NCBI GenBank assembly: GCA_046563655.1
Contig: CM102290.1
Location: forward strand, 930,001-994,000
Source: Yuukianura sp. NJ FZ-2021
Taxonomy: Eukaryota
DNA length: 64,000 nt
Direction: 5' to 3'
Under the pieces are notes generated by a model. It worked only from the letters and a program-made list of their open reading frames with translations, did not search any database and had not been told where the DNA came from. Below are positions 2,944 to 57,500 of this stretch, piece by piece. How positions within the stretch are numbered: position 1 is the stretch's first letter; the number at the start of each line of letters is the position of its first letter. The position numbers were made by a program, and so were the translations under genes.

Positions 2944-4218
2944 ATGGTAAGTCCTTTTTCGTAGCTGTCAATTGACTTCTATTTTAGTATGATGTACTAA
3001 ATTTTTGTTTTAAATTATTTTTTTTTGTATAGTTTCCCTTTGGAATGTTTATGCCTGATGCCAGTATGGCAACCCCGTTCAACGTTTCATATCAAGCATA
3101 TTCAATCTCAATGATGCCTAACGCCGAAGACAAACTGCGACGGGGAGACGTGGATAATGGAGGCAAAAGTGAGGACGCAGATTCATTCAGCATTTGTAAA
3201 AACCTTTCTAGATGGGACAGACATTTCTAAACTCTGGGCATTCTCTGTTTCAGTATTTCTGCCTGCATCGGCTCTTCAACATCTAACTCGCCTCAACACA
3301 GTATATCCTATGCTGTTCAAATTGACGAATCAAAGGACAGGCAGAGAAACTCACTGTGGTGTTCTGGAGTTCGAAGCTGATGAGGGGAATTGCTATCTTC
3401 CATATTGGGTACGTATAGACATTCATTTCTTCATACTAATACTAAACAAGATTTGTCCATTGAATCTACAAGACGTGCTGATTAATAAGTGTACTTTTCT
3501 AGATGATGCGAAACCTGCTGGCTGAAGAAGGAACGCCAATACAAGTTGAAAGTGCGTCCCTTCCAGTTGCAACGTTTGCACTGTTTCAGCCTCAAACATC
3601 TGAATTTCAAGAAATCACAGATCAGAGAGCAATGTTGGAACAAGCCCTACGGAACTTTGCATGCTTAACCGTCGGTGACATGATCGGGATTCGATACAAT
3701 GAAAAGCTTTACGAACTTCTTGTTATGGAGACTAGGCCAGCTCCTGCTGTCACTGTAATTGAGTGTGACTTGCACGTATGTGGTCATCTTAACTTTTCAA
3801 CATTGTTTATAACATTCAAATATTCTAAAACTATATATCTCCAATGTCATTATTAGACTGACTTTGCTCCACCAGCCGACTATGTTCCACCGGTACCAAA
3901 GGCAGAAGAAGACGGTGTACTGAACGGCTCTCACGATGGCGCAGTGGACGTCAATGTTTTTGTCCCTTTTGTTGGGATAGGCAATCGGTAATTTTAATTT
4001 TAGTAAACACAGTGCAATTTTGTCATTTTGCTACAAAAGTAATGCAATTTTTTTTTAGTTTGGACGGTAAAACCGTTTCGTACACTCCGATGTTACAACC
4101 AGACTCGACCGCTACAGGAACCGTTCGCCGAGGGATTCCTGACTATGAGTACGAACCTGGAACGCTGACTTTTGCACGTAACTTTAGAGCCGCTAACTTG
4201 ACTGAGGTAACCAAGTAG
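2944..4218 (+). CDS. UFD1: Ubiquitin fusion degradation protein 1 (p97/Cdc48 cofactor), apparently with a short C-terminus
   Basis: ATG-only first coding exon 2944-2946, then exons ~3033-3168 (GGK), 3254-3408 (YPMLFKL..THCGVLEFEADEG.CYLPYW), 3503-3775 (LRNFACLTVGD), 3857-3987 (FVPFVGIGNR), 4059-4218 (LDGK..GIPDYEYEPGTLTFARN). Confidence 0.93.
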
Positions 4219-34715: not shown

Positions 34716-36962
34716 ATGGGAAGCTCTGGCTCAAAATGCCCGCCACCGCGTCACTACAACTCGTGACGTCAGCCGTCACCACACCCACAACGTTGTTGTC
34801 AATATATTTATTTGTGACGTGGCACGCCTTACTGGACTGTCGACATGTCGCTCCGTGTCCTCTTTTCATCTGCTCCCTGTTTGTGTTCGATTCTCTAGTG
34901 ATTTGACACGCTTCATCAAATGGAATTTCCATTTCAATTTTTAAAATGGAAACTCTTCAAACCATCCGCTGGAGTATTTTTTATTTATGATACGGTGAAT
35001 GAATTACTCATTTTTGTTAGTTTTTAAACTGTAGTTTAGCCTTAGGCAGTTAGGTTTAGATTCTGAGATTGTTCATTGCCATGTCACAAGAGACTTGACA
35101 TTCCCTGTCCCTCAGCAGTACTTTTTGGAGAGTACTTGTGGTCTCCGAGCTCAGCTCAAGTACTTCCTTCAGTAGACCTTATCTTTTTCAAGTACTTTTT
35201 GTCACCTTGTGCCATAAACTGCGCAGTTGTTGTGTAACACGAGCATACTTCGTTCCAGCTCACCTCACGTATGCCCCGTTCAGTTATCAATAACTGGTTA
35301 GCTCTCGAAATACTTTTATCAGGCATAACCTTTGGAGATGAGTATCTTTTTAAACGTTCCCCTTCAACTTTCCCGCCAATTTTTTAAAAAGAAAATTTCA
35401 AAGTGCCAATAGCTAGTTAGCATATGATTCTGCTAAACGTCTCAAGAAGCAAAGCAACTGAGGATTGCTTAGCTTCCTAGTAACGTCATCGCTGAGGGAG
35501 GCGAAGAAAATGCTTCGATCTGAATTTTAAACGTTAAAAATTTGAAATTGGAACTTCGCGCCCAATTTCCGGCCATAATAAGGTTTTGAGTACAACAAAA
35601 TGTTGCGTTCAACTCCTCTGTTTTTATGAAAGTGGGTCCTAGTCAGTACCACTTCCTTATTCTAAACAATGTTATTTTACTCTCTCCTTCCCAAACAAAT
35701 ATTTTCAATTTGCAAGAGAAAGATCTGATTTGTATAATTGATTTGAAAGGAAAGCTCAAAGCTTAACCAACGTATATTTTGTTATTATTCATGTATAAAT
35801 TCTAGTCAGGAGGAGTAGATTAGTTAGTGTAGCTAACTGTAGTTTAATGAATTATTATTTAGTTTGTACATCTTGTTGTTGCGAATTTAAGTAAGAAAGG
35901 TTTTGAACAAAGAATTTTTCCTTCCTGAATGTTTAATAAACTTTTGAAAAAAGAAACTGCGTCTTCTACGACCATCCGAAATCTGGTTTTCATTTCATCC
36001 AAATCCAATCCGAATCAAAGAATGTTTTTAAATCCAAAGTAAACCTAATTTGAGCCAAGTTGATTTTGAACATTTTTGGTTTTTTCTAACCATTTGAGTT
36101 AATTTTTTTTATGCAACAAAAATCAGTCCTTTAAACTGACATTGTAATTTTAAGTGTCCAATTTTAATTTTAGTTTTTACTGATCTTTCATCACATGAGT
36201 GCTCAACGTTTACTGAAAATATTAACATTTATTGTTTTCAGAAGATTTGAATAAAAAAATATTTACAAACCAATTTCATTTAAAATAGTTGAAACCGGCA
36301 AACAACATCATCGATAAAAACGCTTTCAAAATATTTTCACATTTACTTTTACTAAACTTTCTGAATCAATACATAGTCTAGCCTTAAGTAGTACACTAAA
36401 AAATTAGGTAATATTTGAGGTAATATATATTTTCTAGCACTTATTTGATTAAAAACATTTTTTTCTTTCACTGTTTTCAAGATATTTTTCAAAGTTTAGA
36501 ATAAGCTTGTGAATGAAATTTCTGTTTCTGAAAAATCATAGAAAAAGTACCTTGATTACCACATTTTTAAAAAGTTTTTTTTACATGACGAATCTTAAAT
36601 TATCGAATTTCAGATGTACTTTACTCAAAAAAGGGCAAATGACCGTTGACCTGGAAGTTCTAACGTAAACTGTTGAGCATTTTGATTCACGCAGTATAGA
36701 GGGCGTATTTTGCGACAAATGGCAAACATATTTCTTACAGAGTATTTTACGGTACAGGGCATTTCTATTTTTTCAAAAATATGTTGTTGTTGTTTTTAAA
36801 CCTAAACTAAAATTACTTGTAAAAAAAATTAAGTATGGCTCGTATGGATTTTCTTAGTATCCTTGTTCATGTTTAGTAGTTGTGAGCAAACTTTAACGGA
36901 CATAAGTCTTCATTGTATCTGGCCCTCCAGACGCGGGAAGGTCAAGGTCTGGACAAAAGTGA

Positions 36963-39900
36963 TTACTGGAAGCGATTTTGCAGAAGAAGTTGAAATGGAT
37001 TTGGCACAAGTGTGGATCCAAGTTCCAAGTGCTCCTCTACGTCCAAAACGTAGTCCTGTGGAAACTGGATGTGAAATTGGTTCAAAGTATTGGCAAGGAA
37101 GAGGGAAGTGGTCGACCGACTCAGCGACTCCCCGAAAATTGCTTGGTTCCCTAAACAATTTTGGAAATTAGCTTTTTTTTTTTTATTGAAAATTTCAATT
37201 TCTGTGATGTTTGGTTACCGGTTTGAATGGGAATCAAATTTTCATTTCTAAATACACATCCATCTTCAAAGAGAAATCTTTCTGGGGAGAAAGTTTCCGG
37301 ATGTTCCCAGAGGCGGGAGTCGTGGTTGACAGCCCACAACAATGGAATCACCATTGTATCGCTTGGCACAGTGTAGTCTCCAATTTTGGTATGCTAGCAT
37401 TAAAATTTCAAAAGAATTAGAATTTTTAACTGATTTTGTTTTTGGAAAATTGAATTCCACAAAAATTGAAATTGTACTCTACAGGGTAAAATGTGGGAAC
37501 TGAAATTTAACAAAAACTGTGTAATGGTTCATGCCGCGTCGAATTATTTTTTTTTTTGGCCAGAATGCACATGAATGCAGGAATTTTCAAAAAAGTAGTA
37601 CAAGCACGTATCCCTATTGTTTGTTTTTTTTTTTCAAAAAGAGACAAGGTCAAGTGGATGAACCCGCTTCAAGTGGAAACAGACAATAGGTTCAAATGTT
37701 TCCTAGATGATTACACCCTGACCGTAGTCCAGTTTCTCACCTCTTTCACGGCGCGTGGCACACCGAAGGGCACGACTGTCCGATGTCGCCAAATCTCTAA
37801 AACCGTCGCTTCCGTGTATGGCAACTGCTTCAAATCTTCAATCTTCACTTCCCGCTTGGCTCCAACCACTTTCCGAACTTCTGCGGCCACATTTTCCTGA
37901 AAAAAAAAATGAAAACAATTCAAAGTTAGTAAGCAAAAAGAAAACTTTTTCTACACCAGGTTGTGCAATAACTCGAAGTTTTAAAATTTGTGTGAAAGTA
38001 ACAAATCTGCCTGTCTATTTTCGGTAATTTTTCCATTAATTTAAATGAGATAAGATTGGTGCTAAATTGGCGCTAAAAGTTATTTGAAGCAAGATTTTTG
38101 AAAATCTTGAGTTATTGGACAACCTGTTTTAGGAAATACTATTCGGTTGTCAAGGAACCGTGGAAACAATTTACTGAAGCCAAATTTTTCATGGTTATCT
38201 TAATTTACCTGAATCTCGGGATACAGAGCCATGTACAAATAAATCCATTGCAGCGTAGTCAGAATAATTTCCCATTCGCCAGTGATTATTTCGAGCAGAA
38301 CATCCTCTGTAGATTCACTTTCGACTTCACTGGCATCACTGTGCTGCGAACCAAACAATTTTTCAATTCTGAATTTTTATTTCAGGAAGATTTGAAATAC
38401 GGAAAAGTGTCTAACTTCGAAAATGGTCAAAATACAAAACAAATGGCAATTACACAGGCAGGGGTAGAAAATTTCCTTACTCAACCATTGTCATTGCAAA
38501 ATCCACGAAATTTGCGATTGGGTACATTTTGCAATGACAATAGGACCTGAGAGTAAGGAAATTTTGTAACCCCACTTTTACAATTGCAATTGTTTTGTAT
38601 TTTACCCATTTTCTAAGTGATACCTGCTCCAAATACGCGTCCAAGACAGACGCGGCAGAGTTAACTCCAGCGGCACTGAAATTTCGAATGCGACGCTCCA
38701 CGATGATTTTCAAAATGTCCTTAGATTTCTGTTTAGCAGCAATCAGGGACCGAATAGTTTTAGTATAGTTTGGAAGTTTCCTGAAATTAAGTTTTGAATG
38801 AATTAAGTTTTGGATTTTGAATTCCTATTAGTAGTATACCTTAGAATAGGGATGTAGTTCACAGCGTTTGTAACGCTAGCCACTTTCGAGGTTTCTTCAA
38901 AAGCTGATTCTAGAACGGACCAAGTTGAATTGTCTCCTTCGAAACGACTGCCCACCATAATCCCAGTAACAAGTTTGCCAACAGCAGTCCTCAGAGCAGG
39001 CGTAATATCGTGCTCGCTGGTCAATTGACTTCTGATATCCTGAAAAGTATTTAAGTCTAACAATTTGTGTTGATCTCTTGACCCACATGACTTTTCGAAG
39101 CATACTAGTACAGTAGTTTCTCCAACTTACGGCATTGTACAAAATACAAAACAATGGCAATTGTAATAAGCTGGGCTTAGAAAATTACATAAAGTGGAGG
39201 TCCAATTGTCATTGCAAAATGCTCCATTTGCCATTTCATGTTTTGTTTTGTCAGCTTACCGCCAAGCTAATGGTTCAAGTTTTGCATTTCTCAATTGCCA
39301 TTGTTTTGTATTTTATAAAATGCCGTTTGTACAATGCCTAAGTTGGAGAGGCTACTGTAATTTCAATTCATTAGGAGAAAATGTACCTGGAGAAAGTCAC
39401 GCAAACTGTGCTGAATTTGTGTCTCAGTTGTTTCAGCAATGGTTTGCCTCTCTGCTGCATTTTTCCAGCCCAAGGAAACAACCTTTTCCTGCTTCTGCTC
39501 CAAAGTATAAACTTCTGCAAATTGGAAACAATCAAAATTTTTAAAATCATAGCCTAACAGAACATTTTCCAGAGAATCCCCGATCTACGCTTCTCAATAT
39601 TTCCCTTTATTCATAATTTGTGATGATTCCCACCAAAATGGAGGTTAGGTGAGTCTGAGGTCAACCTGAATGGTGTAGTGTGTCAAGCAGATTCAGTGTT
39701 GAAACCTACACGATTGAGTACACGAGAAACGGCGGAAAATGTTTCTGCAATGTTTGAATTACATTGGGATTCAATGTTTCCTCACCTTAGGACCCACCTT
39801 ACATCCTTATGAAAACTAGAAATTCGTGTTTTTGACTCAAGACTAAAGTATACCGTCTGAATCGTTACTGGTGTACCGTTATGTTGCACACAATGAAATA

Positions 39901-41624
39901 CATCTTCCAAAAACTAGATCCCGATACCAGTGATCTACACTTAACCTCTCACAAAGTCTAAAAGGTTTTGTTCCCACGTTTAGCCCCATTCAAAATTTGG
40001 GACACTTGAAATGGACCAACATGTTGGTCCATATCAAATTAATTACGTTCAAACTTTCAACAGTAGTTGAACTGAATTACGCTTCGAAAACGGTTGAACG
40101 TGATTTTTTGAAAGCATCTTCTTTGCAGAAACCCTGAAAGATTTTTTTTAACTGTTTGGTCATGCTTCAATTAAATAAAATGAGTTTCCTAAAAAACGAC
40201 ATCTACAATGACTATTTGTAAAGAATGAAAAGTCGACGCCTTATCCAGTAAACTTATTAACACCAATTGGTATCAAAGGTAAAATCGTATGATTTGATTG
40301 CAAAAATAGATTCTTTTCTTGGTAGATAAGGTTCATTTGACGTTTAATTGCCAGTTAACTCCCAAATCAACTTGCAATTAAACGACATTAGCTTACTAGC
40401 AAAAGAAGAAATTTGGGGATTCATTTTTGAAAAAAAAAACTAAATTGTAATGAGAATGATAAATCGTTGGTCTTCTGCTTTCGGGAGAAGCCGCCTCCCG
40501 TTTTCTGTTGTTGGGGCCACTTTTTAAACTAAAATTTGCATTTACACTTCATTAAATAATAACTCTGTAGATGTTCATAGGAAACGGAGGTAATTTTTGA
40601 ACCTGCCACCCGGATTTTATTGCAGCTTCCAACCGCTTTGTAGTACACACACTAAGATTTTTTGGGAGTGTCATTAAAATTGAAATTTACAGTGTTACAG
40701 GTTACATAACCAAAATAAGAAAATATGACATACGGTTGTGCAGTGCTTAACAAAAAATTATAGAAGTTATGGTTGAGTAAAAAAATGGATTTTTTTATTC
40801 AACCGTATTCGTATGCTAAAAAAATTGTAATTTTTTAAAATGAAAATCTGCAACACTTTTAGACATAAGAGATAGGCTTAGGCTGTTCCACTTTGCGTCT
40901 GAAGAAACACAGAAAAAAAGTTGCAAAACTTTAAAAAAAATGTAAAACGTGAAATGAATTTGCAAAAAAGAAGACACTTGACCTTAGCAAGGTTCAGGTT
41001 AACCACAAATTTGAACTGAAAGGAGGCTACATCGCTTCTTGCGCACTCCATAGTGATTGACACAGCACTTTCTCTTATTTCATTCAAAGTGGTAGGTTTT
41101 GATGTCAATCAGCATTGCACTTTACAAGGAAACCGTTGGCACCCACGGCATTTATCACTCACGACTCCTCAAAGTAGAAAGGTATGAACGTAAACCATTT
41201 TAAAGATATTTTGATAAAAATAAAGTACAAAATGGGGCTACAAATGCAAACGCTTGATAAATAAGTATGAACTGCTACCTTTCTCCTCTTTGAATCCATT
41301 AGTTAAAAAAAGCGGTCCTCTGTCTCGGAACGCTGAACTTCCGAGCGTCTGTCGAATCAGTTTGACATCCGCAACTACGACTGCGTAGATTGACCCCAAC
41401 TGCAGCCCAAATACCCGTCCATACTGTTGAGTCAATGCCGTCAGTTTCTTGTACGGAAATTTCCTATCCAAAAGTGGCAAATAGCCTAAGAATGGAACTC
41501 CCATTGGCCCCGGTGGAACATTCCGATTCCTGATGTCCAAAATGGCAGCACTAACCACAATAGTTGTCACAATTGCAAAGAAAACTGAATGGTTGTTCAA
41601 AATAAGCTCCACAATGTCCCACAT
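36963..41624 (-). CDS. CYP306A1: CYP306A1/phantom-like P450 lacking heme-binding and catalytic residues (candidate pseudoenzyme), 8 exons, 494 aa
   Basis: Exons 41279-41624, 39387-39514, 38840-39039, 38624-38780, 38209-38343, 37741-37896, 37219-37393, 36963-37150 sum to 1485 nt with matching phases and no stop. Phantom-type segments RGPLFLTNG, TMVIPLLWAV, P.QTG. Syntenic with CYP18A1. Confidence 0.85.
38421..38610. repeat. Degenerate fold-back element in a phantom-like intron
   Basis: Inverted arms AAAATACAAAACA..GAAAATTTCCTTACTC..ATTGTCATTGCAAAAT and their complements. Shares blocks with the element at 39111-39357. Confidence 0.65.
39111..39357. mobile_element. Tc1/mariner-pogo type MITE, 247 bp
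   Basis: TA|CAGTAGTTTCTCCAACTTACGGCATTGTACAAA ... TTTGTACAATGCCTAAGTTGGAGAGGCTACTG|TA: CAGT termini with a TA target site. Confidence 0.8.
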
Positions 41625-41670
41625 TTTCTCTAAGAAGTAGCCTCAAATCTGGCTGGACAGATTCGATGTG

Positions 41671-41686
41671 AGGTCAACTGAGGTCA
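41671..41686. promoter_or_regulatory. Nuclear-receptor DR4 element just upstream of the phantom-like ATG
   Basis: AGGTCA-ACTG-AGGTCA, two perfect half-sites 47 nt from the start codon. Confidence 0.45.
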
Positions 41687-43799
41687 AATGGCGCGAGGAA
41701 TAACTTTACAGGGCACTGCATCTACTGAGGAACGGCTTGACCTCTTCCGCAGAGGTGTAGCTGGCTGTAGTCAATGAAAGAAACTGGATGGGCTTGGGTT
41801 TGGGTTTCTCTCTGCCAAATTGTTGGTGACCAGTTTAGGTAACTGGGGGCGAAGAGAATGTGCTGAAATGCTTTTGGATTTAAAATCTCGTGGTTTTCTT
41901 CAATCCTTGTTTCCTTGATCTCCCTCTTTGACTTCCGACCCCCTTAACATGTCGGCAAAATTCAAGGTTTCATCCCTGGCCTAAATGACGAGACACTACG
42001 GTTGATCCTGAACTTGACTTTGGGCCACTGTATATTACACATTTTCGATTAAACGAAATTCGCAACACAAGAATTTGGGTCAGTCGACTTAGTTTATGTT
42101 TGTAAAGGATGATTGATTCAACATTTTCTAAACTTTGATTCGAATCAATAGCTTTAGTCGTAGAATTAAAAATAAAATATCTTTATAAAAAAACGACTAT
42201 GAATCCTCATTTGAGTTCAAATATATTGGGCAATAACCTCAAATTTCAATTTAATTTTCTTGCTCAACACAGTTCGTAGATTTTAAAAAAATAGACGTGA
42301 ATTCGTTTCATTGATTTTAAAATAATTTAATATTTTAAAATTTTAAAAATAAGACAAATTAAAGTAGTAGAAAAAAAAATTTTTTTTTGAAATAATCATT
42401 CATTCGTGGAGGAGGAGAATACAAAGTTCAAGTTGAAGAGAAAGTGAGAACATTTACTGGTTGCAAAAAGTATTCAATTACTGAAATTTCCAATATTGCT
42501 TTCTTTTCGCAAATTTCCCCCAGTAATAGTTGTTGCCAAAAATCTTGACTCTGAAACACCCTCACTTTTGCTCTACAGAAGCAACAGAACGTTTGCTCCA
42601 TTGTGTTGCCGGGGGGAAGATGCCTTTTGACATAGTGAGGACATTACTAAATGCCAAATTTCACCCCTTTTGAACTGCAAATGGCAAACTCACCCCCTTC
42701 TGTCCTCCCCCCACCTAACAGACCCCCTAGTCTGGGAGATGTGTATAATAATAGACCCCTCCTATCATATCATTACCATATTATATTATGTACAACATAT
42801 TATAATATGTTGTTGACTCCTCATCAGTTGAACACGACCAACACAATTCAAATTTTAATTTAAGTTATACTTGTCTTCATCCCCCAACAACAGAGGAAAT
42901 TTGGAAATTATTGTAGGTTAGCTGTGTATGCATGGGGTGCTTAGATTTTTTACAAAAATTTTAAAAGAATTTTTATTACTACTTAAGCATGTTACTTTAG
43001 GTTAGGTAATGCTGATATTATAGTAAATGAAATATTATATACTACACTTATTGGAATTCTACAAGAGTAAGCATAACTTATTGGTATCAAGGCCTATTTT
43101 ATTATAAGTGAAAGCGTTTGTGCGCTTGTGCTGGGTTATACGAAATTGTACATACCTATGTTATTGTTAAAGCAAATTACTAAAAGTACAGCTCTGTTGA
43201 AAAAGCAGTTGGTTTACACGCAAGCGCTTTAGGGTCGAAGACACGCTTAATTTGTTGTCTCAAATTTGGCCAAGAAATACAACATTTTTGCGTTATCAAT
43301 TTCGCTAAATTGTACAATGTTGCAAAAATTTTTGCAAAATGGGTTACGCACTCGCATTAAGTAACAGCATCAATTCATCGCGACCGCGAACATTATGTAA
43401 TTTTTAACGTTACCTTTGGGGGTGTACCCATCGAGTGAAACAAATTTGTCGGAAAGCAAATAATGAATTGTATAACTTCATACTCAACGCAAACATTAAG
43501 GATGTTTTCAAAAAATTTTGACTCGCAAGAAGTGGAAGTAAAAATTTTAGCCGTCGAAAAACTTTTCTTTTGCTTTTTCCTCACTTCAATATCCTAGGAA
43601 ACATTCTTGAACGGATGAAAAAATCACACAAAAAAATCATCGAAAACCTACGCCTCTGATGAACCAAAAATAATGTTTGTTCACATAATAATTTTTGTTT
43701 TGTTTTTGGTATAGAATCTGTTTCCAACATAAAATAATAATAATATTAATCATAATAATAATAAAATAAAATTAATAATAAGTTTCCCCAAATGAAACT

Positions 43800-46380
43800 T
43801 TAGACTGCCTCTGCAGAACAGTCGCTATCAATAGTGTAGTCGCTTCGTGACGAAAAAGTGTTTACATTTTCTGAGTTAAATATTTCCAATCCCACTGCTC
43901 TCCTGTCTGGGGTTTCCAGAATCCTAGCGGAGGATTGAAGGTCACGAAGGTCATTGACCTTTTGAGTACTTGGGACAATATTACTTGAAGTATGAGCCAG
44001 AGACGGTGGCGTCGGCGACCTGGAAATTGATGTCGTAGTGATGAAAATGAGTTCAGGTCGAAATTCACGAGTAGAAGAAATGTGTGGAAAGTTTGGGCGT
44101 GGAAGTTGCGTCGTTCTGAAACTCGTTGTGCACACTGGCGACGATGGATTGTGTCTCCGCAGTACCAAATCCCGCCTTGTGAGCATTCCGTTGACTTCGA
44201 GACCTGGATGAACAATAGGGGAGCGCCTGGTTCGGAAACACCGTGACCACCGTGTAGCCTCCATTCGGAAATGTTCGTTTAGCCAACAGTAAATGTAAGG
44301 ATTGTAACAGGAACTGGACATTGCAATCATGTGACAAACAAGGATGGTAGATGAGTCAGGGCGAAATAGACCGAAGTGAGTAAGAAGATGATAGATGTTG
44401 ATTGGAGCCCAGGAAATACCGAAGCAAATGACGGTGAGTACGAGCATCTTTACTGTTCGGATTTTAGCGCGTGACTGAGCTTCCGCTTGTCGCGGAGTTG
44501 TCGAACCTAGTACAAATTGTTAAACAGTTTTGTGTCATTTCCAGTAAACTGCAAAAGATTTGCATGTGTCTGTTTCAATAAGTTGTGATTTGGAAACTTT
44601 TGAAACTTCAAGAAAATGAAAATGTCATTTCGGAAAACTTAATGTCACGTCGTTAGTTATCGAGTTTAACAGCTTTTGTTGTTGCCATTATACCTCTAAA
44701 TTAAGTTCTTTTCGGATTATTAAGTGTTTCACGGAAGATGACTTTCTCTGGAATCGGAAAATGGGCAAAGTTCTTATCGAGGGCAACAGCCAAAGTAAAA
44801 GTAAAAATGAAGAGTCAGCACTTAATCAAAACTTTCTTTTTCCATAGTTTAAGAACTAGGCTTGTGGGATTACGGAAAACTGGACCATCTTGGAAGGCTT
44901 AAATTAATTAAAACGCTTCCAAAGTTATCTCGAAGATTTTTTGGAAACATTAATTTTTTGTGCTTACCTAAAGCTGTTGAACTGTGAAGTCTTCGCATAA
45001 TGGCCACATAGGACAATGTCGTTAGACTAAGTGGAATCAAGTACTGTAGCAGAAATGTTCCCACGGTGAGAAATTGGCGAGACCTGATTGAATCGAATTC
45101 TGCTTGACAACGTTTCACTACAGCCAAAGTTAGCACATGGACGATCTAAAAATGAACAAAAAGTTTGAAACTAAAAAGAGGACCTTTGGGGCAGTTTCTT
45201 TTCTAACAAACTTTTACTTGAACAAACACATATAGTGTTTTTTCTTTACTTGATGATGGAGAGCATAGGGTAGAGAAAGTAGAAGCGCCAGTATCCAAAT
45301 CCCGATAACAATTGGTATTCCTTCGGAACTTTTCATTCGACGTCCCAATGGATTCATTATGACCTGGAGGAACACCGCCCAGTAAGTTAGAACAAGAATT
45401 TTTTTTTTTTAAATTTGATTTGGAATGCTAGAACTGGGTGAGAAAAGGAGCGTTTACCTGGTAGCGATCAAGCGCTATGACTGCCATTGTGTAAGAAATG
45501 ACGTAGACGGCAGTTACCTAACCAATTACGGAAGTGTTAATCATTTTAATAGTTATTACTTCCCCAATTTTGATTATAAATTTTGAAAATTTTAGCAATG
45601 TGTATCCAAAATTTACCTGGAGAAATGGAACAATGTGGCAGAGAAAGGGACCGAATGGCCATTCTTTTAAAATGACGCGAGCAGCGCTAAATGGTATGTT
45701 GATTGTAGCCATCATTAGATCAGCGACTGCTAGATTCGCCAACAGTACATGCGTCAACGTATGCAGTCTTCTGCTTTTGATCACAAGCTGAAGCATCAAA
45801 CAATTTTTCATAAACATTTTTGAAAAGAAGCTAAACATGGTCTAATTTTTCGAAATTAAACACCTTTTATTACCTGCACTACGAGCAAATTTCCAACAAT
45901 GGCGACTGCCGCAATGATAATATACGCGAATATAATGAAGATGTGTTTCACTGGCATCGTCGTCTCCGCACTGTCACTCATCATGTCATTCAAGTCAGCA
46001 ATATCTGCAGCGGACAAATTCAAATCAAAGTCAGAATTTAGCATTGTTACAGTAGGTGTCTGAATGTCGTCTCCTAACAACTTCCTCGACATCTTCCCAT
46101 CATCAGACTCTCTATTCAGCGACATTTTTAGGGCTTTGATGAACTCGTTTAAATTTTGAGCCAAAATGTCGTCGTCATGGTCAACGTCCGTATCATCCTT
46201 CCAGTCCTCACCTGTGTCTCCTGAGTACACGTTCACTTCATGGCCATAGACTGCTGTTGGAGTAGAATTGACCTCCACGACTGTTCCCATTTTGTTAGCA
46301 ACGCTCTTTCGTTGATTCGGGTACAAACTTCGCAGAATTTCTCTGAGCTTCTCTGCTAAGTGGGCGTCAGTTGATGTCAT
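43800..46380 (-). CDS. Class A neuropeptide GPCR, GPR83/RYamide/NPY-receptor-like
   Basis: GNLLVV (TM1), LANLAVADLM..PF (TM2), WPFG.FLC, DRY, YLIPL (TM5), SWAP (TM6), AMSSSCYNPYIYCWLNEHFR (TM7). About 6 exons. Confidence 0.88.
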
Positions 46381-48568
46381 GGCTCTTCCCTCAAGTCAAG
46401 TCCAGTTTCCCATTCCACAATTTTGTAAATTCGTTACGCAAGATATGTTTCAAAAGTTCTGAGCAAAATTACTTGAAAATCCAAACACGGAAACATACTA
46501 AGACAACTTGGAAGTTAGAACAAAATGTGAACGCTTCACTGGAAGTTTAGGAAGAAACTAAAAAGTTTCGAAAATAGACATTCATTTCTGCCTTGTTTCC
46601 TATTCCACAGCGCCGGTCTCTTTCCACTTGACTTGGAAACAAAGAAAAGCTGTAGATGAATAGAAAAAGTCGTTTTTTTGTTATTGTGCAGAAAGTGTTT
46701 TCCAAAAAAAAAGGCACGAAAATGAAATTAACATTGCTGAAATGAGTCCAAAAATTAATGTTACGGTTGTATTATTTTAATTTTTTTTTTTGGAAGAAAC
46801 GGACTTTTAGATGTTCCGTGATTAAATTCAATTTGAAACGTAAAATGGATCAATGGAGTTTGCACAGTTCCTTCTTGAATTTGGAAAATATAGTCGTTGC
46901 ATAGTAGTTTAAACTTCTTGGGATTCAAATCAGAATCCGCCTTTTCCTGATTCTTCAAACATGATCAGTTTTTTTTATATTTCGAAGAGATACGTCGAAT
47001 CACACCTTGGCTACGGTAAAATTTTCATTTTGAATTTTATTGGAATTCAAATGTAATGCGAACGTTCACGAACATCACGTTGAATCATCATGTGAACAAT
47101 TTCTCAGAAGTAGCGACATTCACGTCTATCCGCATTGAACTAATTTCACTTTTTAGGATTCATATTGTTTGGAAAAGTTACTCTTTTTCTGTACTCGGAC
47201 TCCAGCACTTTTGCGAAAATTAAATCAATGATGTTGCTTACTCTAGTTAATTTGTTCTTCCACTGCTGATTTCTATTAATTCAATTTCTTTAATACAACT
47301 TTCCTTGGAAATGGTGTCATGCCTATGTTGAAATCAATGAAATCTTTATCTAAACGGGCAACAACTCCATGAAAATGGTGGTTCTCGAAACCTCGCGTCA
47401 CATTGGTGGTCCGTGATACGAGTCTCACGAGCGGTCACAGGCCATTTGCTTGAAGAAGCATATGAAATCGTGGAGACTTGATACATGGCTGTGACGAAGC
47501 AGAAGAGGATAGGAAGTGAAAGTAGAGAAAGTCTTTGGCGAAGTTGATTTCGAACGAAGATTAGCAGGCTTATTCCGTGCTGTCGACTTCCCACACTGAC
47601 AACACCATATTTTTTCAGACGCTGCTATTTTCTTACTTTCTATCAGATTTGATTCACGGGAAGTCTCGGATAATTCTGGAAAAAAAGAAGGAAAAACACA
47701 AGAAACACTACGGAATACGCCATCACTGCCAACTCACGATATTCCAAGAACATAAGAAAATTGGCAAAAGGTTCTTCAAGCCTATAAATGCATATCGGTC
47801 CATGCGATCGATCGGCAAATTCATCCAGAACAAGAGCCAAACTTTGGTGCGTGGAAGGTTCTGATGACCCGAAATTCGTGATTCTGTGAAGTCCGTGACC
47901 TCCTGGGGTCCCCGGGCAAAATAACCAAAAATTCGATAACAACAAATAACAATCCAGTGTCAGATAAGATGAACTTTGCTCTGATCAGACATCGGCAAGA
48001 AAGAGCAATTAAGTTGTTCCATGTCCATGCCATTTGTTCGAATGAATTGGTTCCAACGTAAAAGTTTCGAAAGATTACATAACTTCTAAAAACCTAACAT
48101 TTTAGAAACAAAGTTTTTAGAGACAATTCTCCTTTAGAACCAACTCATTTGAGGATCTACGGCGTATTTGGAATTAAGTCTTATGTGTGAAGCGTATTAA
48201 TTAATTTGGGGTAAATAATAATCATTTATTAACATTTATGCTCTTAATTAATAAATTCTAATTAAAATAAACCAACAAATATATTTGATAGCCCTGAAAG
48301 GATCCAAAATGCCCAACATCGTTGAAATCGCGGGAACTTCAGTATTTTGAAATGGTGGAGCTTTTTGTTACACCAGAAAAAACGAAAACAGTGTTGAAAG
48401 TTAATTTTCATCAAAAACGATTTGAATTTTGCTTTCTACAACGATTTCCAAGAAGATTATACTTTTCGTTTTTCTAGTTTCGTCATCCCCTCATCCCTTG
48501 TTAAAACGTAAAAGTTTAGTGTTTGTAAGTATTTTGAACAGTGAAGGACAACTCCAACTTACTTTCTA

Positions 48569-49209
48569 ATGCCGAGGTAAGGTTTTTTTTTAAAAGTTAT
48601 ATCCTCATATTAAACTTAAGTGGTATCTGATTGTGATTATGGTTTTATTTTTGCAGGGACAGGATTCGCAGTCGTGAGCGTGAACGAGGAGACACACACC
48701 GAGACCGTGGAAGGAGAGATCGAAGTCGTGACCGTGAAAAGGATAGAAGCCGTAGCCGGGATAGAGATAGACTGACAAGAGATAGAAGGGCCCGAAGTCG
48801 CGATAACGATAGGAACCGAAGTCGTGACAGAGATAGAAGAGATCGCCGAAATAGGAGCCGAGATCAACTAAAAAGTCGTAGCAGGAGTCGCAGTAGAGGT
48901 AGAGGAGGTCGTGACAGAAGTCGGAGTCGAAGTCGAAGCAGGGACAGGACAAAAGATAGGAAGAATTCAGCGAAGGATGAATCTAAGGAAATTGCCGTGG
49001 TTGATCTCACGGAGGACGATCTAGTTGATAAGACAGACGATGAAATTTCGATGCTGAAAATGATGGGATTCTGTGGATTTGATACTACGAAGAACAAGAA
49101 AGTGCCTGGGAACACCGAAGGGGCTGTTCATCAAGTCGTTCAAAGAAAATACCGACAGTATATGAACCGGAAAGGCGGATTCAACCGGCCTTTAGATTAT
49201 GTTAACTAG
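48569..49209 (+). CDS. SNRNP27: U4/U6.U5 tri-snRNP 27 kDa protein
   Basis: Exon 48569-48576 plus exon 48657-49209. RS/RD-rich N-terminus, then [16 protein letters not shown]...[18 protein letters not shown]. Confidence 0.95.
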
Positions 49210-49836
49210 ATCTTTCATTTTTCTCAATTCTATTCAGTTTGAATTGTTCAAAGTTAAAACTTGAAAAAAACAAAAAATCCTTTTGGGTTGACAAAATACT
49301 TAGAAAAAGGCTTGATGGCCCCAACAAATACAATGTAACCACATTTTCAGCCACATAGATTGTAAGTATTAATACTTTTGATAATAAAAATAATTTACAC
49401 TTATTAGTGTATCAATTATCTGGAGATATTCTGGATTGAGCTATGATTTAAGCCATTAAAGTTCAACGTTGTTAAATATTTTGTCCAATAAATTTATACA
49501 GGTGAGGCTGTTAAAAGAATTTGCTATGTTTGAACCTACAAACCTTTATTTGTAACAAGTTCATTTGAAAATGAGTGAGAATTAATCGATTAATTTAACC
49601 TTATCGTTCCTGTAATGCAATGGTGTAGAATGAGGCGCCAGTTTTAGGTTTTTTTGAGGAACTTATTTTCCGGGTTTTGTGTCTCTTGTTTGCATATGAG
49701 ATGACCGACCATGTGTTTCCATTAACATGGTGTTAAATTAATGCAACAGGTTCTTTTAGTATTAATTCAATTTCTCTTCCTAAACTTTAATTAAGTTTAG
49801 ACTCCATTTGTCAACTTTGGCAATCAATTTTGAAGA

Positions 49837-50853
49837 ATGTCAGCCAATTTTGCAAGATTCACTGAGCTCGGAAGAAAAATTGTAGCAGTTGGCAGAAATT
49901 ACCGGTAAAAACCTGTCATTCCTTGTTCTAATTTAATTTTAGTTGTGAACTTGATGATTATTCAGTCATTTACTAAAATTTGTATCAATTCCTCTAATAA
50001 TCGGTTTGTAATTTCAGGGATCATGCATTAGAACTAGGAAATCCAATACCAAAAGAGCCTTTGCTGTTCATGAAACCACCATCAGCTTACGTTTTGGAAG
50101 GAGGAACAATCAAAGTAACGTCTCTTTTTAATTGTTGCAAATTTGTTGAAATTGATTATATTATTCCATAAAAGTGATCAGAAGTAATTGTATTTTTATA
50201 AGATTCCAAAAGGATGTGACAGTCTTCACCATGAAGTTGAACTTGGAATTGTCATCGGAAGCAGAGGAAGCGACATCAACGAGGCTGATGCCATGAACCA
50301 TGTTGCCGGATACGCTTTGGCTTTAGACATGACGAACAGAACATTACAAGTAAGGATCGTATGCCACTTTAACTATATAAAGTATAACATTATGTTCACG
50401 TTTTAGAATACTGCCAAAAAACAGGGACTTCCCTGGGAACTTGCAAAAGGGTGAGTTGTAGCCGGTTGGTGACTTTAAAGTATTCCATGGTTTCTGTCTG
50501 AATATACAATATCACTATAACACATCTTCCTATTCTTCATTTCCAGGTTTGACACCTCTTGTCCAGTGAGTGCCTTTGTACCAAAGACGATTATACCGAA
50601 TCCGCAGAATGTGGAACTGTGGTGCAAGGTCAACGGGGAATTGAAACAACAAGGAAATACAAAAGACATGATTTTCAGTATTCCTTACCTCATCTCCTAC
50701 ATTTCTCAGCACTTTACGCTGGAACCCTACGACGTGATTTTAACCGGTACCCCAGCTGGAGTTGGTCCAGTTGTGGCAGGAGATCGTATTGAAGCTGGGC
50801 TAACCTCTCGCAACGATGTAATTAATATTAGCTTCCAAGTACAGAATAAGTAA
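49837..50853 (+). CDS. FAHD1: Fumarylacetoacetate hydrolase domain-containing protein 1 (acylpyruvase/oxaloacetate decarboxylase)
   Basis: KIVAVGRNY-DHALELGN, PLLFMKP, LHHEVELG, GYALALDMT.R, GLPWELAKGFDTSCPVS, DVILTGTPAGVG across 5 exons. Confidence 0.95.
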
Positions 50854-51019
50854 AAGTGCAAAGTATTTTAGTTCATAGCTTTCAATTCCTTGACAATATT
50901 GTAACCCGTGGGCAACAACAATACAACAAATTGGACGGACACGGTTACGTAATATACTGTTCTGTCATTCGAATTTGCAGGTTTTTGTGAACTCTTGGTA
51001 ACATAACAGTACTAATTTT

Positions 51020-54000
51020 TCAAGGAACATATGAATAAGTAGAGAAATTGAAGAAAAATCCGCCGTAAATGTTAGTTGTCGCGAAGAGGACAAAGATACA
51101 AGCGAAGTTCATGAACAGCCCAGTCTTGATCATGTCGCTCACTTTCAAATCTCCCGCCGAATACACAATAGCATTTGGAGGCGTGGCCTATCATAACAAC
51201 ACCAATTAATTATTTGATAATCATTGATTATTTAATTTTTGCCAGGTACATACCACTGGTAGCATAAACGCGTATGAGCAGGTCGTTGTGGCTGGAAGCG
51301 TCAAGTAGAGCGGATGAATATTCAATTCTTGCGACTATTTTAAAATTTCAAGAAAACCTTTGGAAACCGTTTTGCAAGATTTTTTATACTGTCCAAAAAC
51401 ACATACATACCAGTTCCAGAAGAATAGGGATCACAATACTTGCGGTAGCTTAACATGAAATGTACAAATCGTTTTGTATTGCAAGTAATTTTATAACAAA
51501 AGCCTTCAATTAAAATATTATATAAAATAATAATATAATAATGATACCCGTGTTGGACGCAACTTCTGTTACAAATCCAATCAGGATCATGCAACAAAGT
51601 TGAATCAAACTTGGCGGCAGAAAATGGAGAGCAGACAAGGTTTGGCCAATGGCTGACGATAGTCCTGCAGCCTTTGCTCCTGCGAAATTATAATTAAATT
51701 TTACTTCAATTACCTAAATTACCTTGGTTAACAAAAGACTTATTAGGTTATGTACCATTTGACAGGGCGTATCCACCACCTAAAATTGCAACAACGTTGT
51801 TATTAGTGGCATTTGTGGGAAAATGTAAAAACATGCCGTTTTTACCCAAAAGCATAACAACGCCCCAGGGAAATCGCTTCACCGCAAACTCGTAGTCCAG
51901 CAATGGTAGGAATTTAACACCCGAAAAATCTGTTAAAAATTTATAATTTAACAAGGACATTCCAAAAGCACATTTTCTTACCTCGTCTTCTGAAGGCACT
52001 GTAGAATTCTGGATTTCTAGGAACGACAAAGAATAGAATCCCTACGAAAAGACTTGATGAGGACAACGTCACTTTCCTGGGGAACCATGACCCCCATCCT
52101 GGGACAATCTTGGGGTCATGCAGAACCCATGTTGTTACGACGAACAGGAACAGAATCAACACTCCAATTTCATGCACACTGAGTCTGCCCAGTGCTTCGT
52201 ATTTCTCAATCAGCATTCCCTTGATCTTGTCTTCTACGTCTTTGGTAAATATGGAATTAGATGCTTTCCGTTCCTCCGAACTCTTCCAGAACCTATACCG
52301 ATTGGGCAGACCAAGAAAAACGATCTGGAGGTAAATCCAGGCAATGAAGAGACATATGAGCATTGGGAAGATGTTGAAGCCCATCCATGTGGCAAAGGTC
52401 AAGGCGGCATAGTCGCCGTGATGGGCAGGATCTAAGTCTCCTAGGAATTCGATCGCGACTAGATTCGTTCCACTTCCAGTTATTACACCAGTTCTAGAAC
52501 ATGAATCAATTGAAACTTAAATTAGGTTTGTTAATTTTTGAAAATACAAAATGCAAAAGTTGGGAATTGGATTTTACCCTCCGAGGTTTGAAGAGTAGCA
52601 AGTAGCTGTTCACAGATTTTGAGGGAATTCAAGAAACAAAACGCATAGTGAACTCTTTAGTGATCTGTCAACATAGTTGGCAAGTCGAAATTGTAAATGT
52701 CATTAGAATGTACCTAAAAGAAGCATTGTCTTCATGTTTGATATGGACTTGTCCAGGACCCTAGGCACAAATTTTGACAAAATTTTTGACCAAAATGTAG
52801 AATTCAAAAATTTCGACTTACTCTGCTACTGGTTTTGATTTTCTCTGAGATTTTAAATCTGGCGACGACTCCGCTTTGTTGAAGGTGACAGTTCCGCGAC
52901 GTCCTGTTGGAACTTCTGGATCCAACACAAACGCTTCATTGATGACTCCAATGCAAATTTTAGATGCATCTTCTTTCTCGTCTTTGTGACCTTTGACCTC
53001 ATGTCCATTGGAATCAATCATTATGTCCTGGTTTCCATTGCACAGTTGCTTCATGCTCTAAAGAAACAAAAGTTCGTATAGTAAGAATCACTGAGCATGC
53101 GTCGATACATTTTCAATACAAAGTGTTGTTACTTTGCCCAATTCGTCCACAATTGAAATGATAATCGGAACCATCATTGCTGAAATTGAATTTTTAGAAC
53201 TTAATTTTAATTATTAATTTTATGGGCATTTTAATTCTTAGTACAAATATGTTAACCTGTTGTAGCAGTATTGAACATCCACATGGACAAAAACATTGTG
53301 GTGAGCATTATTCCTAGAAGTAGCCTTAGAAAATGTTAGAAATTATTAAAAACGCATCACACTAAATTTTAAAAAAACTTGAAATACAAAAAATTTGCGC
53401 TTCCTACATTCCAATGCTGGTTCCAGTAAAAAGCATGACGCGAAGTGCCACTCGTTTGTGAAGTCCGCAGTACTCGAATGCAAGTGCCACCAAAAGTCCA
53501 CCAACAAACAATTGTACAGAATCCTTCAAATACTGCTGCGTTAGACTTTCTGGAAGTCAATCACTCGGTTAAATATTATCTAATTAACTAATTATTTAAT
53601 CATTATTTAAAAGTATTTGACTTAACTAGCCGATTTCTCAAACAAATTTATTGTTAATGTTAAATACCTGTGTGCTGAATGCCAAAAAGTGGATAGAAAA
53701 CTACTGGCAAAAATGCAGTTACTGCAATCGGCACAACTTCGGTCACCCAGTAGGCCGCAATTATTAAAACAATGTACGCTGCATTTGAAATCTGGTAGTG
53801 CAAACAGTATTTTAAAAAATCCAATTTTGGTAAGAAACCAATGCATGATTTCAGATAAAAACGAATTTGAAAAATAATTAAATTTTTAATATAATTAAAT
53901 TTTTAATTAATAAATAACTTTGTCAGAGATACGTTACCGTAGATTTTCCAAGTATTGGAATTGGCAGTAGAATGATTGGTAAACCAATTGCAAAGAAGAA

Positions 54001-54048
54001 CTTCCACGCACGGAGCAGCGGGTACTTGCTTGCCAGTGACTGAGTCAT
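51020..54048 (-). CDS. SLC13/Indy-family di/tricarboxylate transporter, copy 1 (divergent motifs)
   Basis: [93 protein letters not shown]. Stop at 51020-51022. Confidence 0.9.
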
Positions 54049-54556
54049 GTCGTCTTCCGTAAACAACTGAACAACCGACTCAACTTCATCAACTTATTTT
54101 AGTCGTGCTCAAATTTTTTTTAAGATCTTCTACGCAACTGTAATTTGGGTTAATGTTGTTCCAAATCATAAATTCACAAGAAAGTTATGTGCAAAATTTG
54201 CAGAATTTCAGATTTTTTTTTATTGTCCATGAAGTTACAAGAATTAGCTGATTATAAGAATTAGTGGAAGAGCACGTCCAGTTATTAATAAGTTTATGTC
54301 AAAATTAAAAATTGCCTTGATTCTGTCCATAATTCTTGATTTTTAAGACCTGCCTCTTCATTTTGTTGAACTTAATTACTTTAGTTTGTTCGTACCTTAA
54401 AGTTTGACGGATTATTACAAAAAAAAACTACGTTTGACCTTATAAAGTTTTAATTAAAGCGGAAAACTAATAAGCTACTCGCAGAGACCATGAACGTCGT
54501 CGTTTCTTATAAATATGTATTTTTGTAAAATTTAAGTAAAAATTTTAGTTTTTCTA

Positions 54557-57500
54557 CTACATTGCAGGATGCTTCGTAGAATTGGCATAGACGTAATTGG
54601 AGTAGTCGAACAGATAATCACCGTATGTAATATTCAGTAGAAACAACACAATGACGCAAGAGAAGTTAAGGAAAATTCCGCTTCTGGCCATGTCTAAATT
54701 GAAAAAATAGAAAATTAATTTAAAAAAGGAAAGTTATTTTTAAGGAATAAAAAATTACCTAAAATCCTCATATTCTTGGACGCTCCAAATACAATTGCAT
54801 TGGGAGGTGTAGCCACTGAAAATTTTGAAAAAAAATGTTATGAAAATTCGTACAGATCTGTTGGAGATTAACACTGGTTGCCTTCGAGTAAATTTTAACC
54901 TGGTAACATGAAAGCATAAGAGCAAGTAACTGTTGCTGGTAACGTCAGGTACAAAGGATGAAGATTGAGATTTCTTGACTGCAAAAATTAAAATCAAAAT
55001 CATTGTTTAAAATTTCATTGCTTAAGACACTCTGAATCAAAAAAGTAGTTTTTAAGAGTGCGTTCAATTACCAGAGCCAGTAGAATGGGAATGATGATAT
55101 TTGCACATGCAGCATTCGATGCAATTTCTGTTACAAACGCTGTACAAATCATTACAATTAATAAAATTATGCGCTCGTCTAATGCTGCCAAGCCATTCAA
55201 CTGATCTCCAATCCATGGTCCAAGGCCAGATACTTCTGCGGCATCGGACAACGCAAAACCACCACCTATTCAAAACATATCATTAACGAGGATTAATAAA
55301 TATATTCATGTATAAATATATACTAAATATTAAATGTAATAATAGCAATACCCATTAGGAGAACTATTCCCCAAGGTAAATTGTCTTGGACATACTTCCA
55401 ATCCAGGAGAGCTCCAGACGAACCTACAAATCAAAGTTTTTCAATGGAAAACTTTTAGAGTTAATTTATTTAACTAGCCAATTTTACTTAATGGAACTCT
55501 AATTTGCGGTTTGTTTGTTTATATCTTTAAGTGTTAGTCTATTTTTGTTATTCCATGAGTCAACACTCCTTCCCTACCTTATGAAATTCTAATTGCACTT
55601 CAATACATAGAACCTATATTTAGGATTTACGTCGAACCCATTACATAGTATTTTGTTTTCCTTTTCAAAAGTAAATTTACACCTTACTTTGCTAATTACT
55701 TGCACAATTCTTAGAAGAATTTAGCTTAAATTATTCAAATGCGTCAGATTTTCGAAGAATTTGCTAAACTGACGTTAGATTTACAATTTTTGTTTAGGTT
55801 TACTCAAATTGCGACAGTGGAAATCAAGGTTTAATAAATGAGAAACTGGTTTTTTCTTCAACAGGTTACACAATAACTAACTTTTTAAATTTTGTTTAAA
55901 AAATGGAGAAAAAACTGGGGGGGGGGGAGGGGAGGATTAGCAGCCAGATTAAAAAAACGTACTTATTGCTCCTTATTTTAATTAACCTTGCTTATTGCCT
56001 AACCTGTTAAAGAAAAACTATTACGTCGCTGTTGGTACCTTGGTGGAGATTGCCAATTATTATAGCCAATTTCTGTGAACTCAAAGCAATTTGCTCACCT
56101 CCAGTGAAGAACGACAAGTTGCGTGGAATTATGAACAGAAAGAGAACGACCAGCATGGCTGCCGTGGAGTCTCCAATTTCAACGTACGGAACATACGCCG
56201 CCCAGCCCTTGATGAGTCCCGGATCTCTGAAGAGCCAGAGACAGACGACGAGGAAGAACAAAATAGCGACCCACGTTTCATGGAAAGTCATTGACCCCAG
56301 GTCTTTGTACTTCTGCTTCAGGATTCTGCCTACATTCCCTTCAGCTCTTTCTCTGGTGGCTCCTGACCTCTGACCTTTCCCACACCTCAGCCACTGCGGT
56401 CTACCGAAGAAGGAAATGGTCAAGTAGATCCAGGCGATGAATACGTTGATGAGCATCCCAGGAATGTTGAATGCCATCCATGTTGCAAATGTGAGATCAG
56501 TGTACTTCCCGTCTTGACCAATGTTTTCTCTATCACCCAATTCAAAATGTTATTCAAAAACCAACAGAAGTGTTTAGATAAATGAAGAACACGAGTTGAA
56601 ATGAAACAAGCGACAGACAAAGCAATAGCTTGCTAGTAAGTGTAGCTGGGATAAGAAATTGGAAATCTTGGCCAGCGCTGCGTACTTACGTTTTTAGAAG
56701 CTCAATCAGAATTAAGTTTGGAGCTGTACCGGTGATTGTGCCAGTCCTTTATTAGTTGGTTAACAAGCAACATTTGATTAGTTTTGGAGTGTGATTGGGT
56801 AATTAGTAAACTTGGTTAGTGTGTTAAGGCACTCACCCGCCAAGGTTAGAAGAATAAGCGAGTGATAGCAAATACATTTTCTCTAGAGCATTGTAAAATC
56901 CTTTCCTTTTTCTGAAAAGTTAATTTTCAAACAAGTCAGTTTCAACCCAAAAGCAAACGAAATGTGTTAGTGTTATTTGTACCATGCTAGCTTACACATA
57001 TTCATGCAAACCTTTTATGTTTAGTTGAATGGTTCATTAGTGTTTAGCAAAGTTTTAACAAGAAGCAAAGTTTTTGTTTCAACTTTTAAAAACTTTTGGA
57101 TTTTGTGAGTAACATGCAGCATTTTGAGTTTGCTTACTCATGGATTCTGGACCTAAGAACGAGGTTGGGAGCAGTTCCGGTCAGGAATCCTGTTCCGCCA
57201 ACATTGGAAGCATAAGCGATGGACAGGAGAATGACTTTGCCAAACCTTTGGTTGCAAAGTAGACAATTGAACATCAGAAGCACATTTAAATGCATTTGTT
57301 AAACCGTGATCAATGAACATGCATCGACAATAAGATTACAGGCGAAATGTTAACATTTTGGTACAGACAGGAAATGTAAAGATTTGTGACATTTTTATAA
57401 GTTCATTATAAAACAGAGTACAAAGTCATGCTACACAAAGGTGAAAACGTGCGTCAGTTAGTACTTTTGGTGTTCATGAATGAGCATTTTTGAGTTGCAT

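Follow-up and report, generated by a model that had tools for sequence, protein, structure and literature searches.

The stretch of DNA analysed here (the window) is 64,000 nucleotides of Yuukianura sp. NJ FZ-2021, taken from positions 930,001 to 994,000 of contig CM102290.1 (assembly GCA_046563655.1, forward strand), and all coordinates below are positions within it. Two P450 loci, and only two, were found in this 64-kb window by tblastn with five relatives. One is a canonical CYP18A1 orthologue. The other is a phantom-type (CYP306-clade) gene whose spliced model retains much of the P450 scaffold and lacks most of the residues associated with heme. Phantom (CYP306A1) is a core enzyme of moulting-hormone synthesis. 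By position and phylogeny the window gene is its counterpart, and its sequence suggests that it probably encodes a maintained heme-free protein of P450 fold in a springtail-like hexapod. The two genes are laid out as follows.

36963..41624, minus strand: phantom-type P450-fold gene, 8 exons (spliced model)
Exon 1, 41624-41279, minus strand: residues 1-115 plus 1 nt; hydrophobic N-terminal anchor, PPGP hinge and beta-1 region
Exon 2, 39514-39387, minus strand: degenerate C-helix LEQKQEK at 39503-39483, with W, R and F lost
Exon 3, 39039-38840, minus strand: tblastn match to the relative P0002, 40% over 72 aa
Exon 4, 38780-38624, minus strand: from the spliced model
Exon 5, 38343-38209, minus strand: I-helix, with GEWEI at 38280-38266 instead of A-G-x-(D/E)-T
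Exon 6, 37896-37741, minus strand: K-helix ExxR kept (EIWR); His after PxGxP replaced by Arg at 37755-37753
Exon 7, 37393-37219, minus strand: PERF region kept; start of the Cys loop, F replaced by I
Exon 8, 37150-36963, minus strand: rest of the Cys loop (G-N-Q-A-I-F-G), L-helix and stop codon; ATT at 37139-37137 in place of the axial Cys codon
30570..34589, plus strand: canonical CYP18A1 orthologue (tblastn with Orchesella cincta CYP18A1, P0019, 52-67% identity per exon; Pfam p450)

Splicing of the eight exons gives 1485 nt, which is 494 codons followed by TAA, with no internal stop codons and with GT..AG borders at all seven introns. The uninterrupted 494-aa P450 proposed in an initial annotation of the window was thereby reproduced. 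Exons translated singly matched the Pfam p450 profile (PF00067) with 35.5 bits (exon 1), 40.4 bits (exon 6) and 51.3 bits (exon 7) at a cut-off of 22.8 bits, and it is through these three that the profile assigns the gene to the P450 superfamily. Exon 8 scored 12.6 bits, under the cut-off.

The gene belongs to the CYP306 (phantom) lineage, as judged from its sequence. In tblastn exon 1 was 51-57% identical to P0001 and P0002, JGI proteins named CYP306A1 by their source, and these were the two matches among 745 candidates in a search with this exon. With a profile made from both proteins and the window exons, 8000 candidates were scored, of which 757 reached E <= 1e-10. The next-best matches were proteins of Orchesella cincta (P0003, ODN04935.1) and O. 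dallaii (P0004), followed by insect proteins named CYP306A1. P0003 carries the source name 'P450 18a1', and the 458-kb contig that encodes it also bears a CYP18A1. The identity of the spliced model is 40.0% with P0002, 39.6% with P0001, 36.4% with P0003, and 35.4% with P0004.

A CYP2-clan tree of 32 rows (the model and 31 proteins chosen by name among 120 listed profile matches) was built under LG+G4 with a quick search, and support was given by the SH-like approximate likelihood ratio test (SH-aLRT) only. The model grouped with P0001-P0004 in a springtail clade of five rows (SH-aLRT 100). Joined by eight insect rows, of which five are called CYP306A1 by their source, this formed a 13-row CYP306 clade (SH-aLRT 100), in which the springtail proteins are sister to insect CYP306A1 with full support. 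The CYP18A1 clade was separate. The phantom-like identity suggested by the initial annotation is therefore upheld by the phylogeny. When 1.84 billion representatives were searched with a HMMER profile, 59,466 matches had E <= 0.001. Among the best 150 of these, which were examined, one further clade member was found, a protein of Allacma fusca (CAG7827960.1, P0121), and none of the 150 was a Cys-less relative. All named members of the clade (O. cincta, O. dallaii, and A. fusca) are springtails, which makes a springtail or a close relative the most likely source of the window. When exon 8 was compared with proteins of 45-146 aa, no candidate shared three words with it.

The CYP18A1 neighbour is intact in its motifs (WKGQRRF, AGTET, FGVGRRMCLG) and ends with a stop codon at 34587. 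The pair is arranged tail-to-tail, about 2.4 kb separating one 3' end from the other. In insects and crustaceans the phantom/CYP18A1 cluster is described as head-to-head in the portion of Grbic et al. 2011 available to us (PMC4856440), so the adjacency to CYP18A1 expected of a phantom gene was kept here and the orientation was not.

Residues were compared in the 32-row alignment of the window model with the 31 CYP2-clan proteins. The Cys loop, FxxGxRxCxG in heme-thiolate P450s, reads I-Q-T-G-N-Q-A-I-F-G. The main replacements are these.

Axial Cys of the Cys loop: C in 31/31 comparators, I in the window (ATT, 37139-37137)
Cys loop F: F in 31/31 comparators, I in the window
Cys loop R: R in 31/31 comparators, Q in the window
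C-helix R: R in 31/31 comparators, E in the window
C-helix W: W in 28/31 comparators, absent in the window
I-helix T: T in 29/31 comparators, I in the window
I-helix A: A in 28/31 comparators, G in the window
I-helix G: G in 27/31 comparators, E in the window
His after PxGxP: H in 31/31 comparators, R in the window

Three features of a heme-thiolate enzyme are thus absent: the axial Cys motif, the I-helix (A/G)Gx(D/E)T, and the C-helix WxxxR. The Allacma protein, aligned separately, has a canonical Cys loop, I-helix Thr and His. What is kept in the window comprises PPGP, ExxR (as EIWR), the PERF region, and the conserved prolines and glycines, and in exon 1 all 15 of 15 conserved columns. Several of the lost and kept residues had been singled out in the initial annotation, and the alignment agrees with it on each: the Cys to Ile change together with the loss of F and R (all three canonical in 31/31 comparators), the GEWEI and LEQKQEK strings with the loss of the catalytic Thr, and the retention of PPGP, EIWR and PERF.

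The I-helix Ala-Gly and Thr are needed for oxygen activation. Four further lost residues, namely Trp and Arg of the C-helix, the His that follows the K-helix and the Arg of the Cys loop, correspond to those taken here as ligands of the heme propionates in solved CYP2 enzymes. Among solved structures, CYP2B4 and its relatives come nearest, and the C-helix, I-helix, GVPH and GKRxCLGE columns of the clade profile match the corresponding CYP2B4 motifs. In CYP2C9 the Arg433Trp change abolishes contacts with Trp120, His368 and the heme and may lower the stability of the holoprotein (PMC7912942, in the passage available), which backs the assumed ligand roles in part. The Cys is termed a defining feature of all P450s in the accessible text of PMC13411725. 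Since the thiolate, the propionate-ligand positions and the I-helix residues are all lost, no P450-type heme binding and no hydroxylation would be expected of the product, and its 25-hydroxylase activity is predicted to be absent.

The last intron interrupts the Cys loop. This intron 7 is 68 nt long and is flanked by a 12-nt direct repeat (10/12 bases alike), with which it spans 37140-37219 on the minus strand. The period of the repeat equals the intron length, and the GT donor owes its existence to one of the two differing bases. The intron seems to have arisen through an insertion or a duplication that left a target-site repeat, at a time when N-Q had already replaced K-R in the Cys loop. 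At the matching position the neighbouring CYP18A1 is uninterrupted.

If the critical codons were misassembled or miscalled, or if a wrong exon model hid a canonical exon, the losses would be an artefact; this is most improbable. Contigs from four DNA runs were compared with the window over 36900-41700. The X1 contig (36900-37908) differs from it once, at 37011, and the X2 contig (37015-37911) has no base differences, so that both match across exons 6-8. As the two agree across the ATT at 37139-37137, the Ile codon is not a slip of one assembly, although X1-X3 come from one sample, perhaps the assembly's own source. An assembly error at the Cys codon, which the initial annotation had left as a way for its reading to fail, is not what these contigs indicate. 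The losses also lie at twelve separate codons in four exons and not at one base, and the model aligns with its relatives collinearly and free of gaps through the Cys loop. X4, a run labelled as a different organism, has near-identical contigs.

What speaks for a hidden exon is that the exon junctions are predicted from genomic DNA. A six-frame motif scan of the window found a canonical Cys loop only in CYP18A1, plus one spurious match at 14904, and tblastn with five relatives found no second C-terminal exon in the window. Neither search thus yielded the alternative last exon with FxxGxRxC that would have rescued the gene, nor was another I-helix or C-helix exon found in the window by these means. 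Residues 96-190 of 12 relatives, searched by tblastn at low stringency in intron 1 and exon 2, revealed no canonical C-helix exon. Two features of exon 2 could be held in favour of an artefact. The first is an alternative in-frame AG acceptor 39 nt upstream (39515-39553), which would add 13 codons starting with G-Y-D; these extra codons do not restore the C-helix motif, and the acceptor at 39553 was rejected as its source. The second is the +1 frame at 39458-39505 on the minus strand, which reads LWSRSRKRLF and resembles the lost W..RK motif. A frameshift fossil was considered the less likely source, as the DNA is purine-rich, TTG followed by G shifts to TGG, two compensating frameshifts would be required, and the unshifted frame aligns collinearly with Blattella (7/15). 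The string is more likely due to chance.

According to the initial annotation, it is chiefly the heme and catalytic residues that have been lost. At 53 columns 87% or more of the 31 comparators agree, and the window deviates at 14 of them, while each comparator tested likewise deviates at 0-9 of 45-51 columns. Fifteen of the columns were classed as heme-associated (C-helix W, R and F; I-helix D, A, G and T; the His after PxGxP; Cys loop P, F, G, R, C, G and A). The window deviates at 12/15 of these and at 2/38 of the others (Fisher P = 1.3e-7), the classes having been set after the data were seen, though they follow standard motifs. The two remaining deviations are E to Q and I to V, and 36/38 non-heme columns are kept. 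The concentration claimed earlier is thus borne out.

Neutral drift of the coding sequence was simulated 400 times (transition:transversion 1:1 by count), each run being ended once 12 of 15 codons marked at random carried a change. The median number of substitutions per site needed for this was 0.74. By then the median run had acquired 18 stop codons (never fewer than 7), and of the 38 other marked codons a median of 28 were altered. None of the 400 runs was free of stops and none had two or fewer changes among the other 38 codons. Decay of the whole gene over the time implied by the heme-site changes is therefore excluded. In the tree, the end branch of the window is 0.83, compared with 0.50 for P0001, 0.42 for P0002, and 0.69 + 0.05 for the Orchesella lineage. 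The last of these kept its Cys and comes near to the window, which argues against runaway decay.

A second haplotype provided a further view of constraint. It is about 5% divergent from the window over exons 2-5 (38209-39514), and the depths of the two forms sum to the local single-copy depth. X3 carries only this alternative haplotype over 38209-39514; over 36900-37981 it has 15 differences, mostly outside those counted. At least 29 exonic differences were counted, 16 synonymous and 13 non-synonymous, and none creates a stop. These are the best-supported differences only, with 177 base differences and 52 indels beyond those counted. All 12 of the 12 listed indels are intronic. Over exons 2-5, 13/27 differences are non-synonymous where 18.9 were expected (P = 0.015). 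The deficit is clearer in exons 3-5, with 8/21 against 14.2 expected (P = 0.005), transitions and transversions having been allowed for. The ratio of synonymous to non-synonymous differences is 1:5 in exon 2, 3:3 in exon 3, and 7:3 in exon 4.

These data bear on the possibility that the gene is a relic on its way out, long heme-less or weakened and now unexpressed or recently dead, whose open frame survives because too little time has passed. This appears unlikely. The deficit of non-synonymous differences in exons 3-5, the retention of the 36 non-heme columns, the 494 codons without a stop, the intronic position of all listed indels, and the absence of any drift run that could account for the heme-site changes are at odds with it. 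Several observations nonetheless weigh against a maintained protein, in addition to the classes chosen with the data in view and the junctions predicted from genomic DNA. Exons 2-5 (four of eight), translated singly, had no Pfam p450 match. The end branch is about twice as long as those of P0001 and P0002. In exon 2, 5/6 haplotype differences are non-synonymous where 4.8 were expected, which is indistinguishable from neutrality; this fits a C-helix with no heme to hold, and six differences prove nothing. As the haplotype counts are a sample, the other haplotype may carry a frame-breaking variant. No close orthologue was present in the libraries searched, where the nearest relative is 40% identical.

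The pattern, in which the heme site is selectively lost and the remaining fold stays constrained, is the mark of a pseudoenzyme and not of a young pseudogene. A maintained heme-free protein thus remains the probable reading, both the production of the protein and its heme-free state being inferred from sequence. The counterpart of the ecdysteroid 25-hydroxylase gene, phantom (CYP306A1), would have become that of a P450-fold protein without heme. The scaffold is retained (a membrane anchor at the N-terminus, the PPGP hinge, the core from ExxR to PERF, and most other conserved positions), and the thiolate ligand (Cys to Ile) is lost along with the heme-propionate-ligand positions, the I-helix Ala-Gly and the Thr. 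What remains of the protein is probably still under selection. Its present role is most likely non-catalytic. Anchored in the endoplasmic reticulum (ER), it could bind a sterol or an ecdysteroid intermediate; alternatively it could regulate other microsomal P450s or their reductase, or serve as their partner. A binder or partner of this kind is the most likely role by analogy with the bacterial proteins AknT and EryCII, with low confidence in its details, and the analogy itself counts as a weak point of the reading. The initial annotation had proposed a maintained non-catalytic protein acting as carrier, sensor or scaffold. Its first half gains from the heme-site concentration, the drift simulation and the synonymous bias of exons 3-5, while the second half is pure inference.

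The protein might instead still be an enzyme, either by heme-independent chemistry on the P450 fold or with heme held through another ligand. Nothing direct speaks for this; there is a Cys 14 residues upstream of the lost axial one, in DGCVF. The Trp, the two Arg and the His taken above as propionate ligands are gone together with the axial Cys, as is the I-helix Thr, and we know of no natural P450 with such combined losses, although no systematic search for one was made. Residual catalysis is accordingly regarded as highly implausible.

A different matter is whether the window gene is the only phantom of this animal. A Cys-bearing CYP306A1 elsewhere could carry out 25-hydroxylation, and the window gene would then be a neofunctionalised or relaxed duplicate. 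This is possible but somewhat doubtful. It bears on the hormone and is compatible with a pseudoenzyme at the locus. The phantom/cyp18a1 family is reported to be highly expanded in most arthropod orders, with an excess of expansions of moulting-related families at the ancestor of Collembola, in the sections available of a 2026 MBE paper (PMC13449613). The gene nevertheless adjoins CYP18A1, where phantom is expected according to the available portion of PMC4856440; the 64-kb window holds only the two P450 loci; and one clade member was recognised per named species in the libraries searched, which was not a designed test of copy number.

A stronger version of the pseudoenzyme reading can be put forward only tentatively, and we consider it rather unlikely as a whole. 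In this version the sole phantom orthologue would have turned into a heme-free, ER-anchored sterol binder or P450 partner, and the moulting hormone would be made without CYP306A1. The hormone could be a 25-deoxy ecdysteroid, e.g. ponasterone A with CYP18A1 kept, or it could be completed by another 25-hydroxylase.

To our knowledge, the sole well-known departure at phantom is its outright loss in spider mites, which changed the hormone used. In Tetranychus urticae CYP306A1 and CYP18A1 are both lost and the hormone is ponasterone A, as stated in the portion of PMC4856440 available. The window resembles this species in being from an arthropod without a working phantom enzyme at the locus. It differs in that both genes are absent from the mite, whereas here the phantom-type frame has been kept open and CYP18A1 is canonical.

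Compared with the five springtail CYP306 P450s (P0001-P0004 and P0121), the window protein is 35-41% identical overall and 44-57% identical in the N-terminus and PPGP region. It shares with them E(I/V)WRHR, the W in the I-helix motif, and a length of about 500 aa. The Cys, the Thr of the I-helix, the His and one or more Arg of the C-helix are present in all five, and the window protein keeps none of these. Insect CYP306A1, the ecdysteroid 25-hydroxylase and sister clade, is similar in the Q-x-G of PFQxGKRxCxGE, which is kept in the window, and in having CYP18A1 as neighbour. Unlike it, the window gene lacks the heme and catalytic residues and its gene pair is tail-to-tail.

More distant parallels exist in bacteria. 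The actinomycete auxiliary protein DesVIII is reportedly one Cys-less P450 homologue. AknT and EryCII are others that serve glycosyltransferases as partners, and AknT, without the Cys, activates a glycosyltransferase (PMC10054333, in the part accessible to us). As far as that part goes, the likeness is that of a P450 fold without the heme-ligating Cys, kept in bacteria as a non-oxygenase protein. AknT and EryCII are bacterial, soluble and encoded beside a glycosyltransferase, unlike the window protein, and were compared with it at superfamily level only. Among 18 long reading frames of the window no Pfam match to a glycosyltransferase family was found, in a scan that was not exhaustive and for a eukaryote whose partner genes need not be linked.

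Cys-less pseudoenzymes derived from P450s are therefore already known, and what is new here is the origin from an animal Halloween-gene orthologue. We know of no earlier Halloween-gene pseudoenzyme, and no report of a heme-less phantom was found in the literature searched, in which subscription papers are incompletely covered. If the reading is true, an animal steroidogenic P450 can be re-used as a non-enzyme, and a natural heme-free P450 scaffold of known substrate class is available for study. The finding also makes concrete the questions of which ecdysteroid springtails use and which enzyme 25-hydroxylates it. Surveys of the presence and absence of Halloween genes can score a copy with a dead site as a working enzyme.

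The other long reading frames of the window are ordinary animal genes, identified by Pfam matches.

981-1675: WBS/Bud23-type methyltransferase
3115-3853: UFD1
8793-9233: Tudor-domain gene
43803-46395: rhodopsin-family G protein-coupled receptor
48637-49206: SNRNP27
50521-50850: FAA-hydrolase-domain gene
51944-52516 and 56010-56549: two Na/sulfate-symporter-like genes

The introns of the phantom-type gene contain repeats. In intron 5 (about 37866-38187) the X1 contig depth is 47,000-63,000, where the flanks have about 200, and joints and loose ends are numerous; this points to a very high-copy short element. Two weaker intronic repeats are located at 38349-38509 (intron 4) and 39154-39314 (intron 2).

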